From: a virus
Direction: 5' to 3' (one strand)
Virus genome (UHGV): UHGV-0090440
DNA: 64,000 nt
The notes below the pieces were generated by a model. It was not told the DNA's origin and ran no database searches. It saw nothing but the letters and a program-made list of their open reading frames with translations. Shown piece by piece: positions 1,765 through 22,102 of the stretch (position 1 is its first letter; each line of letters starts with the position of its first letter). A program made the position numbers and the translations under genes.

Positions 1765-2581
1765 ATCGTTGTGCTACATCCTCCCGGTCGATATCGTCGT
1801 TCTGGTCATAGAGATCATCACAGAATGTCAGGGCTTTGATACTCATATCATCGTTGACTCTGAACGACGCGCGGTCCATCCAGTTAATTGCAACGGTCGT
1901 AGCTACTTTCCCCGCCTCAATGTGAGACATAATCTCGTCGGACTGTAGATCAACTTTGTTGCAGCGAACGGCACCACCATTATCGAGCAGACCCTTTAAT
2001 GTGGCGTCTTCACCTGCTGTAAATCCGGCAGGGAAGCTGTTTTTAAACCACTCGGTCATTGTAATTTCCAGCGGTTCGCGTGGTGTGAATGGAATGACAG
2101 GCAGGCTGCCGAGCGATTTTCGCAATAAAGCCAGCTGGTCCTCTGCCTTTTTGGCGCTGCTTGCCTCAACGAATACCAGATGGTTGCTGCGGTCGATCAG
2201 GATTTTTGCGAGTGATTTTCTCGTGAAAGCACGAGGAAGAAGAGAGTGAAGCACTTCATCCTTCAGCGAATCTTTTTCGGTCTTCTTCAGCTTTCTGTCT
2301 TGCTCTTCTTCAAGTTTCAGGATTTTTTTCTGTAACTCTTCTTTGAGTACTTGAGAAGGCAGGATTTTTTCCTCTCGTTTATGCTGCATCAGAAGAAAAC
2401 CCTGGTATTCATGGGTGAGGTTGTCGCCAAGAATTGGGGTCCAACCAGCTTTAGCCATATCCTGAGAACCGCATGGGGTAAACACAAACTTGCTAAGGGC
2501 TGCATTTACTACTGCGGTATCCCAGTTAACTTCGCGTGAAAGACGATAGATGAAGATATTTTTGAAAGCGACTGATCTCAT
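1676..2581 (-). CDS. rdgC: RdgC-like recombination-associated protein
   Basis: N-terminus MRSVAFKNIFIYRLSRE...FTPCGSQDMAKAGW resembles E. coli RdgC (MLWFKNLMVYRLSRE...FTPCGSQDMAK) from memory; length about 300 aa as in RdgC. Confidence 0.7.
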   Translation of the reverse strand: MRSVAFKNIFIYRLSREVNWDTAVVNAALSKFVFTPCGSQDMAKAGWTPILGDNLTHEYQGFLLMQHKREEKILPSQVLKEELQKKILKLEEEQDRKLKKTEKDSLKDEVLHSLLPRAFTRKSLAKILIDRSNHLVFVEASSAKKAEDQLALLRKSLGSLPVIPFTPREPLEITMTEWFKNSFPAGFTAGEDATLKGLLDNGGAVRCNKVDLQSDEIMSHIEAGKVATTVAINWMDRASFRVNDDMSIKALTFCDDLYDQNDDIDREDVAQRFDADFVLFTGELSALFNALVEAIGGEAER

Positions 2582-2592
2582 TTCTCACCATT

Positions 2593-2626
2593 TGTGTTAG
2601 AAAATATGCGTTAATTATCTAACACA
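2593..2626. promoter_or_regulatory. paired operator-like motifs (TGTGTTAGAAAAT ... ATCTAACACA) upstream of the rdgC-like gene
   Basis: Inverted pair of the dispersed TGTTAGAAA / TTTCTAACA motif, 10-40 nt upstream of the rdgC start on the minus strand. Confidence 0.45.
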
Positions 2627-2640
2627 AATGGGTGCATTTT

Positions 2641-3294
2641 CTATCCTTTCTTGAAATCGAAGTTGCCAGCAGTGGCCTGAAAGGTTCCCCCTGCCTTGAA
2701 AGCTATGTCCCCGTTAGCGGTGACAGCAATATTTTCCCCATTAACATTGATGTTGTTGGCTGATTTGACGTTAACACTCCCTCCTGCATTCACGATTACA
2801 TCAGCCGGACCAATGATATATATCTGCCCGGACTCATTCATGCCAATCCTTGAGCCTGCTGCCGTATTGGCAATTTCATAGCCGCCACCAGCAGTTCGTA
2901 CTTCAAGAATATTGTTGCGGTGAATAACGAAGTCTTTCGTTGCTGAGATTTGGGGGCGGGGAGGTGCTCCATCTACTTCCGGCGGCGTCCAGCCGCTACC
3001 ATTGCCTGACGCCTCCGGCGCGACGTTTGGAACTCCGCCAGGCGCATCCTGAGCCGCGCCAACTATCATTGGGCGTCTGGTGTCTATTCGACCGTTAACA
3101 TCTAAATAAGGAAACTCTACCCAGACCAGGTCACCTTTGACTGTAGGTACAAAAGCGTTCCCGATGGGTAACAGGTATTCCGCCCAGGGTAGATCGTCAT
3201 CAGGAACGCCATTCCAGTCAGGTAAAACACGGACTTGAGCACGCATAAGCCCTGCCGGGTGCACAGTTCCAACAATTTGCGCTCTACGCTTCAT
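2641..3294 (-). CDS. putative baseplate spike / gpV-like protein
   Basis: N-terminal OB-fold-like pattern (LPW...G..PTVKGDLVWVEF...G) typical of P2 gpV / Mu gp45-family spike proteins, followed by a Gly/Asn-rich repetitive C-terminus (NAGGSVNVKSANNINVNGENIAVTANGD). Confidence 0.4.
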   Translation of the reverse strand: MKRRAQIVGTVHPAGLMRAQVRVLPDWNGVPDDDLPWAEYLLPIGNAFVPTVKGDLVWVEFPYLDVNGRIDTRRPMIVGAAQDAPGGVPNVAPEASGNGSGWTPPEVDGAPPRPQISATKDFVIHRNNILEVRTAGGGYEIANTAAGSRIGMNESGQIYIIGPADVIVNAGGSVNVKSANNINVNGENIAVTANGDIAFKAGGTFQATAGNFDFKKG

Positions 3295-4271
3295 TTGTTA
3301 GGCACTCCCAATATCATTCGTGTTGTGTAGCCTACTCGGTCCTCAAAGTGCGCAACATTTTTTACTATCAGCTTACGGGGCATTGATTCATCAATGCGGT
3401 TTTCCTGGTCATAGCGGTATACGATAATCTCTATTACCATCCCCGGTTTTATATCAGGATTGCCTGCGACTTCTATATCCATTTTGGGGACGAGAGACAG
3501 CTGCATATTGCGAAGAGTTTCCATATCAGAGTCGGATATATAACGCACTGGGAGTGAGCTATCGCCATATTCGACGTAGCCATCGGTCATGGAATACCCA
3601 ACAAAACGATATTGATTCTTTGCTGTTGTCGCATGTTCCTGTTGGAGTAGGCGCATTTTGGACAAAGTGTATTCTGCTTTAGGGTTATTCCCCTCGTAGG
3701 TAAATGATGGCGTTTGCTTCATCAGATCAGCCAGGGTGTAAAAGTTAAATTCCCCCCGACATACCCAACACAATGCACCTTTGTCTCGCGCTATCTCCGA
3801 AAGCATTTTTGACGGTTTGTCACCAGCATTCAGATGATATGTAACTGCGCGTTTTAGCACGCTGCTGGTAATTTTAAGTTTGCCGGAATATGCCTTGAAT
3901 ATAGCGTCTGGTGTTTTGTTGGTATGTAAATTTGTGCGCGGGGAGGGGATCTTAAACCTGCGCACGTCTTCACTGACAGCAATAACGGTAACAACATCAC
4001 CAGCCAGCATTGCAGACGTAACAAAGAAATCTGTTTTAAAAGTGCCAGCATTACCGTTTGGATCGCCCATTTCAGCCACCAGCGATGCACCGTATTTGGC
4101 TTTCCAGTCATCAATTACGGTGCCGGTAGCGTCATGAATTTCCAGTTTTAGCAAAGGGGCTTTGAGGCAGGTTTTTTCTACATATACTGCGGTAAAAATC
4201 CAGTCTCGTGGCACTTTGTTATCGTTAATGAGCACTGACTGTAGAAAATATTGTTGTAACTCCTGGGCCAC
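3291..4271 (-). CDS. hypothetical protein (possible virion/baseplate module)
   Basis: 326-aa ORF, stop overlaps the start of the spike-like gene (translational coupling); no recognisable motif. Confidence 0.35.
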   Translation of the reverse strand: MAQELQQYFLQSVLINDNKVPRDWIFTAVYVEKTCLKAPLLKLEIHDATGTVIDDWKAKYGASLVAEMGDPNGNAGTFKTDFFVTSAMLAGDVVTVIAVSEDVRRFKIPSPRTNLHTNKTPDAIFKAYSGKLKITSSVLKRAVTYHLNAGDKPSKMLSEIARDKGALCWVCRGEFNFYTLADLMKQTPSFTYEGNNPKAEYTLSKMRLLQQEHATTAKNQYRFVGYSMTDGYVEYGDSSLPVRYISDSDMETLRNMQLSLVPKMDIEVAGNPDIKPGMVIEIIVYRYDQENRIDESMPRKLIVKNVAHFEDRVGYTTRMILGVPNK

Positions 4272-4274
4272 TTA

Positions 4275-5042
4275 TCACCCCATAGATATCGAGGTTTCGG
4301 TAATAATACGTTTTGCGTCCAACTCCCATGCTGTGATCACGTCTGCAATCACACTTATCGGCGCTTGTGTGGCATAAATACGCTCTTCTCCAATTGGTGC
4401 TGAAACATCCGTAAAGCCGACTTCTTTGGCATCCTGTATCGAGCAAATCAGCGGGACCGGGACACGAACAAGGTGAGTGGTTGCTTCAAATTGTGTACCT
4501 GTCATCAGGCGAAGCCGTGCGCCCAGCGAATTACACATCAGACTCATGGTCGCTTTATCAGTTGCCATTAACGTAACGTCATACGTCAGAATGGCCTGGG
4601 TGTATTCCAGTTCTGCTAAAGGCGTTCCGCTATCTGGTTCGCAAAAACTGGCTACTTTTTTGCGGTCAATCTGCTGATCATCGTTGATATAATTGATATC
4701 CATAGTGCGTGAGATATTGACCAGGGGGAGAGCATCCCGGTTAATGTTCTGGTTTTCAGGTTTTCTCCCTTGCCCGGCATTTGCGCGACGAACTGCTTTA
4801 AGAAACTCGATCGCATTGTCGAAACGGGCCATATAGACACGCTCTGCTGGTGGACGATTCAGGAATGACGCAAAGCGTTTTTCTTCCGGCGCGGGGGCCA
4901 CCAGTAAGATATCAGAAAAAATGTTGCTGATTAGCGTCGCAAACGCGTTATCCACGTTTTCAAAGCCCGTGGTCTGGAATTTTCCTGTGCGTAAGGTTTG
5001 CCATTCACCGGTTCGCGCCAGGAGGGTTTTATTTGACGTCAT
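4275..5042 (-). CDS. hypothetical protein
   Basis: 255-aa ORF in the same tightly packed minus-strand operon. Confidence 0.35.
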   Translation of the reverse strand: MTSNKTLLARTGEWQTLRTGKFQTTGFENVDNAFATLISNIFSDILLVAPAPEEKRFASFLNRPPAERVYMARFDNAIEFLKAVRRANAGQGRKPENQNINRDALPLVNISRTMDINYINDDQQIDRKKVASFCEPDSGTPLAELEYTQAILTYDVTLMATDKATMSLMCNSLGARLRLMTGTQFEATTHLVRVPVPLICSIQDAKEVGFTDVSAPIGEERIYATQAPISVIADVITAWELDAKRIITETSISMG

Positions 5043-5872
5043 TCGATCACTCCGTTTTGAGTCGTATCAAAATTCCTGGCAGGTATGCAGTAATAAAGCG
5101 AACCAACATGCTGTGTGCCGTAGCTAAAAATACGGTGCACGTACCACCAGCGGCGGGCTACGCCGTTTACCATCTCTTCATTCCATTCAAGAATTGAGCC
5201 GACGGGGACGTTATTTGCTGCAATACGCAGAATCAGAACATCATCGGTTAAGCCATCCTGCTCACCGTCTGCGTCAATTGCATGGAAAGAGTCACGCCCG
5301 TCAGGGTTATCCAGCACATAAACGATTTCAGGTTCCTGGTAAGTCAGTTCGCGTTGGTTGTTATCCAGTTCAGTGAATGACTCTTCTCCTGTTTCGTCGC
5401 TGACTACCCCATATGTGCCAACATCTGGTCGATATAAGAGAGCCTGAAACGCGTCTGGGCTGGATTCAATAATCAGCATCCAGTCTGCGCGGATTTGGTC
5501 ATTAAAGGCTTTATGCCCGTTATAGCGTGCTTTTAACTGTGGAGTCGGTTCTCTGCCAGCCAGGGAAGGTGGAAGTATGGCTATATCTGATTCGCCAGCG
5601 TCCGGAGTAAGGCCACCGTTGCTATCAGCAAAATTATCATGGCTATCAGCTTCGGCGGTGGATTGCTCTTCCAGAATGCTGAATGAATCCGGTCCGGCAT
5701 TGCCATGTTCCGGCGCGCTTCCTGCATCCGCTTCAACCGTCGCTGGCGTTTCTCTCTGCGTGCTGTCATGTTCTGACTCCTTACTTGCCAGGTTTGCATC
5801 GTCAGCAAACCATTCGTCAAAACGGCCCATAAGCATCCTCAAAGGTCGATTTATCAGGTATCGAGGGTGCAT
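5039..5872 (-). CDS. hypothetical protein with acidic low-complexity N-terminal half
   Basis: 277-aa ORF, first gene of the minus-strand block; D/E/S-rich N-terminal region. Confidence 0.3.
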   Translation of the reverse strand: MHPRYLINRPLRMLMGRFDEWFADDANLASKESEHDSTQRETPATVEADAGSAPEHGNAGPDSFSILEEQSTAEADSHDNFADSNGGLTPDAGESDIAILPPSLAGREPTPQLKARYNGHKAFNDQIRADWMLIIESSPDAFQALLYRPDVGTYGVVSDETGEESFTELDNNQRELTYQEPEIVYVLDNPDGRDSFHAIDADGEQDGLTDDVLILRIAANNVPVGSILEWNEEMVNGVARRWWYVHRIFSYGTQHVGSLYYCIPARNFDTTQNGVIE

Positions 5873-5909
5873 TATCTGGAGATTGTGATTTCAATTCATA
5901 TCCCGGCAT

Positions 5910-5945
5910 GGGACTAAAGTGCTTTACATTGTCCCATATTGGGAC
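5910..5945 (+). promoter_or_regulatory. palindromic operator-like sites upstream of higB
   Basis: GGGAC-N16-GTCCC and the perfect palindrome GTCCCATATTGGGAC lie 30-65 nt upstream of higB, consistent with antitoxin autoregulation. Confidence 0.45.
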
Positions 5946-5975
5946 TAGCATACTTTCAGAGAGAAGGAATCTGTG

Positions 5976-6278
5976 ATGAAAATAATTTCGCTAAAAACAC
6001 TAAGGGATTTCTGGGCGAAGAATCCCGATGCAGAACAGCCATTAAAGGCATGGGTTGATGAAGCAACAAAGGCTGACTGGAAAAATCCGGCTGAAATCAA
6101 AGAACAGTACCGGACAGCCAGCATCCTTAAAAACAGGCGCGTGGTGTTCAATATTAAGGGAAATGATTACAGGTTAATTGTCGCAATTGCTTATCAGCGA
6201 GGATGGATGTTCGTTAAGTTTATTGGAACACATAAGGAATACGATGCCATTGAAGCGGATACAATAGAACTGGAGTAA
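5976..6278 (+). CDS. higB: type II toxin HigB (RelE/ParE superfamily)
   Basis: C-terminal VFNIKGNDYRLIVAI...FIGTHKEYDAI matches the HigB pattern (YVFNVGGN..RVV...THKEYD). Toxin gene precedes the antitoxin, as in hig loci. ATG at 5976 has an upstream GAGAAGGA RBS. Confidence 0.75.
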   Translation: MKIISLKTLRDFWAKNPDAEQPLKAWVDEATKADWKNPAEIKEQYRTASILKNRRVVFNIKGNDYRLIVAIAYQRGWMFVKFIGTHKEYDAIEADTIELE

Positions 6279-6281
6279 ATC

Positions 6282-6641
6282 ATGAACATTAAACCTATCC
6301 GTACAGAACAAGATTATGAGGCCGCACTGCGTGCGGTCGAACCGATGTTCGATAACGAACCGGAAATGAACACACCGGAAGGCGATTTCTTTGAAGTAAT
6401 GTGCCTGCTCATTGAAGAGTACGAGAAAAAGCATTACCCAATTGAGCCACCATCACCTATTGAAGCCATTAAATTCCGTATGGAACAGCAAGGGCTGACC
6501 GTGAAGGATCTGGAACCGGCGATTGGTAAGTCAAATCGTGTTTACGAAGTGCTAAATGGGACACGAAATTTAACGTTACCTATGATTCGTCGTTTACATT
6601 CCCAGTTTGGCATTCCTCTTGAAAGCCTGGTTGGTGTATGA
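6282..6641 (+). CDS. higA: HigA-like antitoxin, HTH (XRE family)
   Basis: 119-aa ORF starting 4 nt after the higB stop; C-terminal half has a helix-turn-helix pattern (LTVKDLEPAIGKSNRVYEVLNGTRNLTLPMIRRL). Confidence 0.7.
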   Translation: MNIKPIRTEQDYEAALRAVEPMFDNEPEMNTPEGDFFEVMCLLIEEYEKKHYPIEPPSPIEAIKFRMEQQGLTVKDLEPAIGKSNRVYEVLNGTRNLTLPMIRRLHSQFGIPLESLVGV

Positions 6642-6675
6642 GTTTGGCGGTCTGTATGACCGCCTTTGTTGTCAA

Positions 6676-7872
6676 TCAAGAACCTTTCTTCACGTACTCC
6701 ATAAACATTTTTTCAGCTTGCTCAGGTGACGTTCCTGCCATGACCAGTGCATCAATGAACGCCTGCTTCTTCAGTGCGAACTGATCGGCAAGGCGTTGCT
6801 GAAGTTCCTTATTTTTCTGTTTCTCACGTTGCAAGGCCGCTTCTTTTGCAGCCGCCCGTTTTTTCTGTGCGTCTGACAACTTTCTGGCCCTGGTCAGCTG
6901 GTCACGTAGCTTGTCAATCTTCCCGTTGTCCTTTGCCAGTTTTGTACTTAAAGCGGCCTGGCGCTTCTGATAGAGCCTCCATTCGCGTTTGGCGGCTTCA
7001 ACGTTCGTTTTACTGCTACGATTGCGATTAAACTCCTTCTCGTCTTCTTTTGAGAAGTGTTTAGTTGTACGGCGGCGATCGTCACCAAATGCAATTTGCG
7101 TTGCAGCCTTTTGTAGCGCACGAGCAATACTCATTTGCCAACTGGCGGACTGTAACCGCGTCATTGAGTGGATCACGTGTTTACAGGCGACGCCTTGCAG
7201 CTTCGGGTTGCGAACTTTTGGATAGGCGTATTCTTTTGGCGGTGCCAGGGCAAAGTTACCCGCAGTGGCGATGTAACGATACCAGTATTGATGACGACCA
7301 CAGTCACAATCGAAAGACACTCGCCCGGCGCACAGTGATTTAGTGATTTTGAGAGCTGATTTATCGTCTTCTGCGATGTCATCAACCATCTGATCCCATT
7401 CTTCAAAGCGTATCCGGACGATATGGTGCTGGTGGACGGATATATCCGATGCTTCTACGCGGATATTAATCACATTGTGGCGAAGAGATACGGGGGTAGC
7501 TCTTTTGATACCAGATCCGTCATCCACGGCGTTATTTGCACGCTTAATATCGATTGCCTGGCTGGATGCCACCAGCTGGGCGTATGTGATGCCAGCCGTC
7601 TTGCTGTCATATTTTTCGCGCGTTTTACTCCGTAGCTTTTCGAAACCTTTCAGGTCGTCTCGCGTGAAGAACGTGCCGCCTTTTTTCTTCCCTAACTTGA
7701 GAATATCTTCGGCGGATTTGTTCCTCAGTCTACCTGGCGTCAGCGTCCGGTGAGCTTGTCGGCGCTTACGGGTTTGTTCTTTCCTGATAATCTCGAATAA
7801 ACGCGTGAAGTCCTTAGAGGACAGGCCGTCAGTGATATAGCGCCCGTCCTGGTTTTTCAGGAAATCAGGCAT
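6676..7872 (-). CDS. hypothetical protein with SWIM-type zinc-finger motif and K/R-rich coiled-coil C-terminus
   Basis: CxCx(n)CxH pattern (FDCDCGRHQYW...CKHVIH); C-terminal 120 aa highly charged and coiled-coil-like. Confidence 0.4.
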   Translation of the reverse strand: MPDFLKNQDGRYITDGLSSKDFTRLFEIIRKEQTRKRRQAHRTLTPGRLRNKSAEDILKLGKKKGGTFFTRDDLKGFEKLRSKTREKYDSKTAGITYAQLVASSQAIDIKRANNAVDDGSGIKRATPVSLRHNVINIRVEASDISVHQHHIVRIRFEEWDQMVDDIAEDDKSALKITKSLCAGRVSFDCDCGRHQYWYRYIATAGNFALAPPKEYAYPKVRNPKLQGVACKHVIHSMTRLQSASWQMSIARALQKAATQIAFGDDRRRTTKHFSKEDEKEFNRNRSSKTNVEAAKREWRLYQKRQAALSTKLAKDNGKIDKLRDQLTRARKLSDAQKKRAAAKEAALQREKQKNKELQQRLADQFALKKQAFIDALVMAGTSPEQAEKMFMEYVKKGS

Positions 7873-8194: not shown

Positions 8195-8387
8195 AACAAA
8201 GCCTCTCAGTCATAACCTGGGGGAAACTGTATGCAGGGTGTGAAATGCGAGAAACAGACAGGCCACCAGTTCAGGGGGATGTGGTTCATAAATCCCCTCA
8301 CTGGTGACAAGTGACTTTCATTAATCTTTATGCGGGGGCCAGCTTCATTTGCTGGCATTAGATTAAAAATTAAACGGAGTGAATGAC

Positions 8388-8522
8388 ATGGATGTTATCT
8401 TCGAATTATTAATGCTAATTGATCTGTTTATGAACGCCTCATTGACCACGCAAATACTGGCGTCAATATTTTTGTTACTCTTCTACCTGGTATTGAGGGA
8501 GTTAACAAAGCTACTAATGTGA
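8388..8522 (+). CDS. small hydrophobic peptide (44 aa), candidate membrane peptide
   Basis: ATG at 8388 preceded by ACGGAGTG; translation MDVIFELLMLIDLFMNASLTTQILASIFLLLFYLVLRELTKLLM is almost entirely hydrophobic. Not in the supplied ORF track because it is under 60 aa. Confidence 0.25.
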   Translation: MDVIFELLMLIDLFMNASLTTQILASIFLLLFYLVLRELTKLLM

Positions 8523-21428: not shown

Positions 21429-21500
21429 GCTGCAAAGTGCTGGTGCTTTATACCTGTGAAGTTTATAGTTGTGTACACATAACGAGCACATGAGGTGTTT

Positions 21501-21722
21501 ATGCAATCCATTAACTTCCGTACCGCGCGCGGCAACCTTTCTGAAGTGCTCAACAATGTTGAAGCCGGGGAAGAGGTTGAAATCACCCGCAGAGGCCGAG
21601 AGCCAGCAGTAATTGTCAGCAAGGCTACTTTTGAAGCCTACAAAAAAGCGGCGCTGGATGCTGAATTTGCATCCCTGTTTGACACCCTGGACTCCACCAA
21701 CAAGGAACTGGTTAACCGATAA
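21501..21722 (+). CDS. phd: Phd antitoxin
   Basis: [39 protein letters not shown]... matches P1 Phd as I recall it; immediately followed by doc. Confidence 0.85.
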
Positions 21723-22102
21723 TGAGGCATATATCACCGGAAGAACTTATTGCGCTTCATGATGCGAATATAAGCCGCTACGGCGGCCTGCCGGGAATGT
21801 CAGATCCGGGTAGGGCAGAGGCCATTATCGGGAGAGTTCAGGCCAGAGTTGCCTACGAAGAGATCACCGACCTTTTCGAAGTCTCCGCCACCTACCTGGT
21901 GGCTACGGCGAGAGGGCATATATTCAATGATGCCAATAAGCGTACCGCGCTAAACAGTGCGCTGCTATTTCTACGCCGTAACGGTATACAGGTATATGAT
22001 TCTCCCGTGCTGGTGGAACTTGCGGTGGGGGCCGCAACTGGTGAAATCCCCGTATCTTCAGTAGCGGAAAAACTACGTGAATTATTTGGTTCCAATATTT
22101 GA
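21722..22102 (+). CDS. doc: Doc toxin (Fic-fold kinase)
   Basis: 126 aa; start overlaps the phd stop; [11 protein letters not shown] Fic-like motif. Confidence 0.85.

Follow-up and report, generated by a model that had tools for sequence, protein, structure and literature searches.

A predicted HigB/HigA toxin–antitoxin operon of the K-12 type, with a conserved palindromic operator, in a D6-like phage-plasmid

Introduction

Do two short genes preceded by palindromes, lodged among the tail genes of a virus genome (UHGV-0090440), form a toxin–antitoxin (TA) operon that represses itself, and what would such an operon do for the element that carries it? The DNA analysed here, i.e., the window (one stretch of 64,000 nucleotides), is a D6-like, P1-related phage-plasmid, and two systems for post-segregational killing, phd-doc and higBA, have been described in D6-like plasmid prophages (PMC6799933). 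The original prediction read the locus as a HigB/HigA module with a palindromic operator, serving addiction or abortive infection in addition to phd/doc. The latter, the classical addiction module of P1-type plasmid prophages, is also carried in the window (PhdYeFM at 21495-21722, E 3e-13; Fic/Doc at 21722-22102, E 3e-9), so that higBA is its second TA module, as had been proposed. The two modules belong to unrelated families, phd/doc having a Phd/YefM antitoxin, a Fic/Doc kinase toxin and the antitoxin gene first.

Results

Layout of the locus and its expression signals

The locus is a compact two-gene unit, higB-higA, on the + strand (5900-6672 of the 64 kb window), and its features are the following:

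5893-6281, + strand: exchangeable segment holding promoter, operators and higB (alignment with D6 and pF719)
5900-5914, no strand: candidate distal operator O1, imperfect palindrome ATCCCG-GCA-TGGGAC, 31 bp upstream of O2
5923-5928, + strand: -35 hexamer TTTACA of the predicted hig promoter (promoter scan)
5931-5945, no strand: candidate operator O2, perfect palindrome GTCCCA-TAT-TGGGAC, filling the -35/-10 spacer
5946-5951, + strand: -10 hexamer TAGCAT, directly abutting O2 (promoter scan)
5963-5968, + strand: Shine-Dalgarno GAAGGA of higB, 7 nt 5' of the ATG (read from the sequence)
5976-6278, + strand: higB, putative RelE-superfamily toxin (PF09907; Pfam, PDB and PADLOC matches)
6271-6274, + strand: GGAG ribosome-binding site of higA, within the 3' end of higB, 7 nt 5' of the start codon (read from the sequence)
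6282-6641, + strand: higA, putative antitoxin/repressor, N-terminal domain at about residues 1-60, C-terminal helix-turn-helix (HTH) at 63-115
6646-6672, + strand: predicted intrinsic terminator, GGCGGTC-TGTAT-GACCGCC followed by TTTGTTGT (terminator scan)

The toxin gene comes first; it starts with an ATG that is also used by its homologues and by the RefSeq annotation of near-identical plasmids, encodes 100 aa, and is separated by 3 nt from higA (119 aa, same strand). The mechanical start of the higB reading frame is an in-frame GTG at 5973. A sigma-70 promoter is predicted upstream (TTTACA-17 nt-TAGCAT, 5923-5951, 9/12 matches in the promoter scan); TAGCAT is merely a moderate match to a -10 hexamer. 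Downstream, the terminator hairpin has a folding energy of -14.6 kcal/mol, and neither the promoter scan nor the terminator scan found a promoter-like or terminator-like site on the + strand at the higB-higA junction. With one promoter upstream, one terminator downstream and neither in between, the pair is predicted to be a single operon. An Rfam search over 5500-7000 gave chance-level matches only, i.e., no known RNA element. The extent originally proposed for the module, 5910-6641, has both open reading frames in place and ends exactly where higA does; its left border cuts through the left half-site of O1, which begins at 5900, and its right border leaves out the terminator.

Both genes resemble the K-12 HigB/HigA complex

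HigB matches the Pfam family PF09907 (HigB_toxin) over all 74 positions of the profile (E 3.4e-34; score 117 bits, cut-off 27) and the HigB chains 5IFG_A, 5YCL_B and 6KML of the PDB (E about 1e-7), which belong to solved complexes of E. coli K-12 (5IFG) and S. flexneri (5YCL). Identity to K-12 HigB is 28%, and ten residues (K42, F58, N59, G62, N63, R66, T85, H86, Y89, and D90) that are at least 95% conserved among 75 aligned sequences are all identical in the K-12 protein. HigA carries an HTH_3 domain at residues 63-115 (Pfam), i.e., at its C terminus, and aligns with the HigA chain 5IFG_B over residues 6-112 (E 2e-8, 32% identity). The naming of the two proteins as HigB and HigA is borne out by these matches, with a PF09907 toxin, an HTH_3 antitoxin and both partners matching chains of the same complex. 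Each protein was also assigned to a PHROG family; neither was matched by NCBIfam, and a Pfam search gave no match of the window HigB to PF05015.

On homology, the pair is of the K-12 (YgjN/YgjM) type and not of the Rts1/Proteus PF05015 type. The K-12 HigB-HigA (YgjN-YgjM, 5IFG), S. flexneri HigBA (5YCL), and Salmonella SehAB systems are all PF09907, toxin-first modules, as in the window. HigA proteins of this type use the N-terminal part for dimerisation and toxin binding and the C-terminal part for DNA binding, and bind two palindromes on the -35 and -10 boxes of their promoters (PMC7160566; PMC11980606). By homology the window HigA is arranged likewise, with the toxin-binding/dimerisation domain first and the HTH at the C terminus, and the predicted window operators likewise lie over the -35/-10 region. 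Further differences are in length, the HigA of K-12 having 138 aa (119 aa here), and in setting, i.e., a phage-plasmid instead of a chromosome. Rts1/Proteus vulgaris-type HigBA (PF05015, including the D6 cassette) is like the window pair in being toxin-first, in having a ribosome-dependent RelE-superfamily toxin and in self-repression through a palindrome (the last two being predicted properties of the window pair), whereas the HTH of its antitoxin is placed near the N terminus rather than the C terminus, and BLASTP detected no similarity between the D6 PF05015 toxin and the window HigB. Two other pairs were considered as relatives and rejected: Coxiella ToxP/AntitoxP, proposed as an experimental relative, belongs to the V. 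cholerae HigB2 family, and the IncC plasmid "higBA" (tad-ata) shows its greatest similarity to the A. baumannii pAB120 pair.

Of the relatives that have been tested experimentally, PD-lambda-2 is the closest by profile score. Its A profile in PADLOC (PD-Lambda-2_A, PDLC03979) matches HigB with E 9.9e-42 (139.6 bits), and its B profile matches HigA with E 7e-43 (145.5 bits) over positions 1-119 of 402 only. PD-lambda-2 of E. coli ECOR42, whose proteins are RCO93357.1, RCO93356.1 and RCO93355.1, is an experimentally selected, three-gene abortive-infection defence (Vassallo et al. 2022, PMC9519451), in which B joins a HigA domain to a C-terminal ImmA/IrrE peptidase and a third gene, C (P4-antitoxin-like), is required for defence (PMC9519451). 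The window has the A-like HigB; however, its HigA ends at 119 aa without a peptidase domain, is followed by the terminator and a convergent tail gene, and the third + strand gene is absent. Given that both the peptidase domain and the third gene are missing, the window locus is not a PD-lambda-2 system. In that defence system, toxicity comes from B by itself and rescue from the HigB-like A (PMC9519451), and the polarity of the toxin should thus not be taken for granted here, even though the peptidase is absent.

An 84%-identical higBA cassette lies beside the c1 repressor gene of the phage-plasmid pLH50. Against it, pN/pS is 0.12 for higB and 0.06 for higA; the substitutions are overwhelmingly synonymous, and both genes are under purifying selection.

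Two palindromes at the hig promoter

The GGGAC/GTCCC copies reported upstream of the genes are present, GGGAC at 5910-5914 and 5941-5945 and GTCCC at 5931-5935. A repeat finder resolved them into a perfect inverted repeat with arms of 6 nt (GTCCCA and TGGGAC, 3 nt apart, 5931-5945), i.e., O2, and a 14-nt pair (5901-5914 and 5931-5944, 79% complementary). In the pLH50 cassette, the counterpart of O1 reads ATCCCA-AGA-TGGGAC, both half-sites being conserved and the central 3 nt different. TGGGAC/GTCCCA is under-represented in the 64 kb (9 observed on both strands vs 23 expected), and three of the nine sites are packed into 37 bp (P about 8e-5 by simulation). A relaxed motif, [AG]TCCC[AG]N3[CT]GGGA[CT], has exactly two matches in the 64 kb, at 5900 and 5931.

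The comparative set consisted of 80 genome loci with HigB homologues (62-86% identity), representing 73 distinct upstream regions from Enterobacterales, Pasteurellaceae, Pseudomonas, many Betaproteobacteria, and others. A short higA homologue (118-133 aa, mostly 118-127 aa) follows higB in almost all 80 loci, at a distance of a few to about 27 nt. The relaxed motif lies upstream of higB in 69 of the 73 distinct loci and was matched only once in 218 kb of flanks. Anchored on the motif, the homologue loci yield the consensus TTGc...aGTCCCA-nnn-TGGGAC-TAnacT; the palindrome always sits between -35-like and -10-like hexamers, with a -35 of TTGCnn at the same distance from the operator as in the window, and its half-sites are conserved around a freely varying centre of 3 nt. 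Because the relaxed motif occurs at two places only in 64 kb, and at the same promoter position in 69/73 homologue loci, the hig repeats are not a chance occurrence.

Within the clade with this operator, the putative recognition helix of HigA, NRVYEvL (residues 85-91), is all but invariant, and mean identity is higher in the C-terminal, DNA-binding half of the protein (0.70) than in the N-terminal half (0.52). A conserved palindrome with a variable centre, accompanied by a nearly invariant putative recognition helix, looks like an antitoxin operator, and HigA very probably represses its own promoter via O1/O2, to judge from these patterns. The original suggestion of autoregulation through a palindromic operator is thereby strengthened, as the identical palindrome is found in the promoters of homologous higBA operons across Proteobacteria. 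In K-12 the helix reads SMVSRVL instead of NRVYEVL, so that the operator would be expected to differ in sequence from that of K-12; a full-text literature search turned up no description of the operator sequence.

Number and spacing set the window somewhat apart from its relatives. Two operators are present in only five homologue loci, all of Enterobacterial type and 28-32 bp apart (31 bp in the window). In 63 of the 69 operator-bearing homologues the operator begins 27-28 nt 5' of the start codon, compared with 45 nt in the window, and the start codon follows the -10 hexamer by 6-8 nt, which implies a leaderless higB mRNA in most of the clade; one example of this leaderless type is the copy in a lambdoid prophage of E. 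coli O45:H2. The longer distance in the window is due to an 18-nt insertion that supplies GAAGGA (alignment with a Citrobacter homologue), an insertion common to pLH50 and a Shigella remnant and absent from most homologues; transcription of the window operon is predicted to start near 5958, with a leader of about 18 nt.

A cassette inserted antisense in the late tail operon, and its replacement

The higBA pair lies on the + strand between - strand tail genes that are homologues of P1 genes 7 and 25. A gap of 145 bp separates higB from the gene 7 homologue, and the convergent gene 25 homologue starts 35 nt past higA. In P1, genes 26-25-7-24-6-5 form one late operon transcribed from LP26, with genes 25 and 7 spaced by 3 nt; given this adjacency, higBA is an insertion, antisense to late transcription. 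Read on the - strand, the 6646-6672 hairpin is followed by AAACUCAU and lacks a U-tract, which is found on the + strand only. Late tail-operon transcripts can thus probably read through it.

The PF05015 higBA of D6 is inserted at this very site, with tail genes 7 and 25 on either side. In D6, as in most relatives, the segment 5893-6281 is replaced by a PF05015 toxin, its own HigA (HTH at residues 16-70), its own palindrome (TGCACT-N7-AGTGCA) and a terminator, the junction falling exactly at the higA start codon. The 119-aa higA is left behind as an orphan, intact in D6 and pF719 (15 synonymous and two non-synonymous changes between the D6 orphan and the window gene), and is reduced to a 5' fragment in most other related plasmids; in the plasmid examined, this fragment is annotated as a truncated pseudogene and a 729-bp hypothetical gene comes next. 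In some Shigella dysenteriae plasmids, all that remains is the promoter with the higB 5' end. The possibility that the orphan higA serves D6-type plasmids as an "anti-addiction" gene was considered and rejected, the gene being a truncated pseudogene in most relatives; it is better read as a decaying relic. Searches elsewhere in the window found no PF05015 TA and no D6 orf73.

Among the sequences that match, only 21 of 125 plasmid records and 19 of 95 complete E. coli genomes retain higB, and its loss is always accompanied by the gain of another TA pair. The window thus represents a minority arrangement, probably the ancestral one, and the higBA cassette looks dispensable for the element. Copies of about 80% identity occur at 155 chromosomal places in E. 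coli genomes, and the one chromosomal copy examined lies in a lambdoid prophage, adjoining the immunity region; the pair is a recurrent phage cargo.

Discussion

We consider it likely that the locus is an intact type II TA operon of the K-12 HigB/HigA kind, self-repressed, carried as cargo by a D6-like phage-plasmid and acting as a second addiction module beside phd/doc. What is observed at the locus and in its relatives is the gene content and order, the homology, the anatomy of promoter, operators and terminator, and the family-wide conservation of the operator. For toxicity, neutralisation, repression, Lon lability and a post-segregational role we draw on analogy with the family, of which the K-12 pair is the guide: its HigB cleaves translated mRNA only (PMC2814082), and its HigA represses a single upstream promoter, with Lon needed for induction (PMC2814082). 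By this analogy, the promoter at 5923-5951 would drive a bicistronic higB-higA mRNA ending at the terminator (6646-6672), HigA dimers, or HigB-HigA2-HigB complexes, would bind O1 and O2 via the C-terminal HTH, and occupancy of the operators would block RNA polymerase and repress the operon, while HigB would be bound and neutralised by the N-terminal half of HigA. Once the resupply of HigA stops, e.g., when the plasmid prophage is lost, Lon would degrade HigA and free HigB, which would cleave mRNA on translating ribosomes and bring growth to a stop. Plasmid-free segregants would be penalised in this manner, and higBA would act as an addiction module beside phd/doc. Addiction of the plasmid prophage is the most probable role of higBA by analogy with such systems.

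The same pair might instead have phage defence as its main role, shielding the lysogen from other phages by abortive infection or exclusion, with plasmid addiction being secondary. Both proteins match PD-lambda-2, HigB its A component and HigA the first 119 positions of B (E 1e-41 and 7e-43), and both fall into PHROG families; close copies are typical prophage cargo (the 155 chromosomal places in E. coli, one of them near a lambdoid immunity region), the pLH50 copy is near the c1 repressor gene, and HigB-family toxins of TAC modules mediate abortive infection (PMC11980606). However, the two parts that distinguish PD-lambda-2, i.e., the third gene and the peptidase fused to HigA, are both absent from the window, no trigger or sensor is evident at the cassette, and the carrier is a low-copy plasmid prophage, for which addiction is the classical role. 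We thus regard a primarily defensive function as unlikely. Its fate elsewhere suggests that the pair might be a remnant, inactive or in decay, and a selfish passenger about to be lost: higB has been replaced in most D6-like plasmids, many of which keep just a truncated higA pseudogene, and some Shigella dysenteriae plasmids retain nothing but the promoter and the higB 5' end. In the window, however, both reading frames are full length with all family-invariant residues, the expression signals (promoter, terminator, and the two operators and two ribosome-binding sites) are intact as well, and the changes relative to pLH50 are overwhelmingly synonymous, which makes a remnant very improbable here.

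Another reading concerns the repeats alone, which might be an Lpa-type late promoter for the divergent gene 7 homologue instead of a HigA operator. They do lie within the 145-bp gap between higB and this gene, which might need a new promoter with a cassette sitting inside a P1-type late operon, and in a comparison with LP26, one of the 11 P1 late promoters, the heptamer GACTAGC, present in and after the -22 element of LP26, was seen to recur at 5943-5949. Yet neither strand has a TAnnnT hexamer after the motif at the spacing seen in P1, the exchange in D6 and most relatives has removed the repeats along with higB and left gene 7 in place, and the palindrome accompanies higBA in chromosomes of Pseudomonas, Comamonadaceae, Rhodocyclales, and others that are devoid of P1-like genes. 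As the motif travels with higB and not with gene 7, and occurs in non-phage genomes, we rejected the late promoter, to which we give practically no credence, and retain the repeats as the candidate HigA operators.

The position of the cassette invites a bolder extension of the addiction model, one that we put forward as rather improbable. Since the cassette is antisense inside the late tail operon and has a terminator that probably acts in a single direction, late lytic transcription through higBA might cut the resupply of HigA and free HigB at a set time; separately, the serial replacement at the site, where higBA, an unrelated higBA with an orphan higA, and an unrelated higBA with a truncated higA have all been seen, suggests direct competition between the addiction modules of incompatible phage-plasmids. 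If true, the antisense timing would couple HigB to the lytic programme, in host shut-off or the exclusion of competitors, and not solely to plasmid loss.

The higBA pair is real but ordinary, and databases already annotate it automatically. A D6-like phage-plasmid with two maintenance TA pairs confirms what has been assumed for the group and adds little to it. The palindrome GTCCCA-N3-TGGGAC in the promoter spacer, common to a large clade of PF09907 higBA operons of Proteobacteria, offers a target for studies of binding and specificity. The 18-nt leader with a Shine-Dalgarno gained by the phage-plasmid copies, in a clade most of whose members look leaderless, may bear on the toxin:antitoxin ratio in toxin-first operons. 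Finally, the related plasmids provide a natural replacement series at one hotspot, in which one TA cassette is displaced by another and the orphan antitoxin then decays.

Distribution and exchange of the higBA cassette

Other mobile elements carry the same higBA cassette at different sites: the P1-like plasmid pLH50 has it close to the c1 repressor gene and next to an integrase gene, and in the E. coli O45:H2 chromosome it adjoins the immunity region of a lambdoid prophage. In complete E. coli genomes, a distant search additionally matched it to 155 chromosomal locations. At the higB site itself, a replacement hotspot, the promoter and higB are exchanged in phage D6 and most related plasmids for an unrelated higBA cassette of the PF05015 type, whose junction with higA falls exactly at the higA start codon.

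Copies, replacements and remnants of the cassette
Window 5893-6281: promoter and higB, the segment exchanged in D6 and most related plasmids
Phage D6 (L001) 3196-4421: replacement series
Relative L003: replacement series
Related plasmid L087, 2508-2702: replacement series
pLH50 (L085) 2503-3244: higBA cassette
E. coli O45:H2 chromosome (L088) 3970-4665: higBA cassette
Shigella dysenteriae plasmid (L086) 2501-2619: truncated cassette remnant

In D6 and pF719 the 119-aa higA is an intact orphan; in most other related plasmids the higA match is limited to the first ~183 nt, and the remnant in L087 is annotated as a pseudogene with its C-terminus missing. Among the majority type of relatives, this truncation goes together with an insertion of orf73. 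The latter gene (D6 4484-5212) is AT-rich, encodes a hypothetical protein of 242 aa for which Pfam gave no match, and sits 3' of higA in many relatives, while being absent from the window. In three D6-like plasmids of S. dysenteriae the higBA cassette is reduced to a truncated remnant, which comprises only the proximal operator, the leader and about 80 nt from the 5' end of higB; the sequence beyond it is unrelated.

Other toxin-antitoxin loci

The phd/doc module, alongside which higBA was originally noted as a second module of the addiction or abortive-infection type, is indeed present (window 21495-22102), with a 75-aa PhdYeFM antitoxin gene and a 126-aa Fic/Doc toxin gene overlapping by one base. 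The gene 26 and mat homologues flank another variable spot (window 8195-8522), where the match between the window and its relatives ends at 8257. At this spot the relatives (L003 4567-4680; L087 5100-5190) harbor a gene for a "HigA family addiction module antitoxin", and no convincing ORF was found in the window's gap.

Placement within the late tail operon

A comparison of window 5831-6675 with the P1 locus (L004 3114-7865) places the higBA cassette, in antisense orientation, inside a region that in P1 is one late tail operon (26-25-7-24-6-5) whose genes 25 and 7 are separated by just 3 nt. Since a U-tract follows the higBA terminator hairpin on the + strand but not on the - strand, late transcription probably continues across the cassette in antisense. 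The - strand also shows a hairpin weakly resembling a terminator, at 6123-6108 (-9.2 kcal/mol, z -1.9). At window 5828-5872 (- strand), the mechanical ORF of the gene 7 homologue begins at position 5872; D6 and the RefSeq annotations of near-identical plasmids begin it at a downstream ATG (5830), preceded by a GAGGA ribosome-binding site, and with this start the gap to higB becomes ~145 bp.

Promoter, operator and leader

Proteobacterial higBA loci of the PF09907 type form a large clade (the 80 fetched loci, L005-L084, and the prophage copy, L088) with a common promoter architecture: one predicted operator, GTCCCA-N3-TGGGAC, lies in the region 30-50 nt 5' of the higB homologues, with the -35 hexamer on one side and the -10 hexamer on the other. 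No published description of this operator turned up in a full-text search. A fourth TGGGAC, at window 6557-6562 within higA and adjoining a weak promoter-like match (6558-6586), encodes Asn-Gly-Thr of the HTH region and is probably a coding-sequence coincidence.

As only 6-8 nt separate the -10 hexamer from the start codon in most clade loci, the sequences suggest that their toxin mRNAs are leaderless. An 18-nt leader with the Shine-Dalgarno GAAGGA (window 5952-5975, downstream of the -10 hexamer and ahead of the start codon of higB) is missing from the chromosomal and prophage homologues and restricted to the phage-plasmid copies, i.e., the window, pLH50 and the Shigella remnant.
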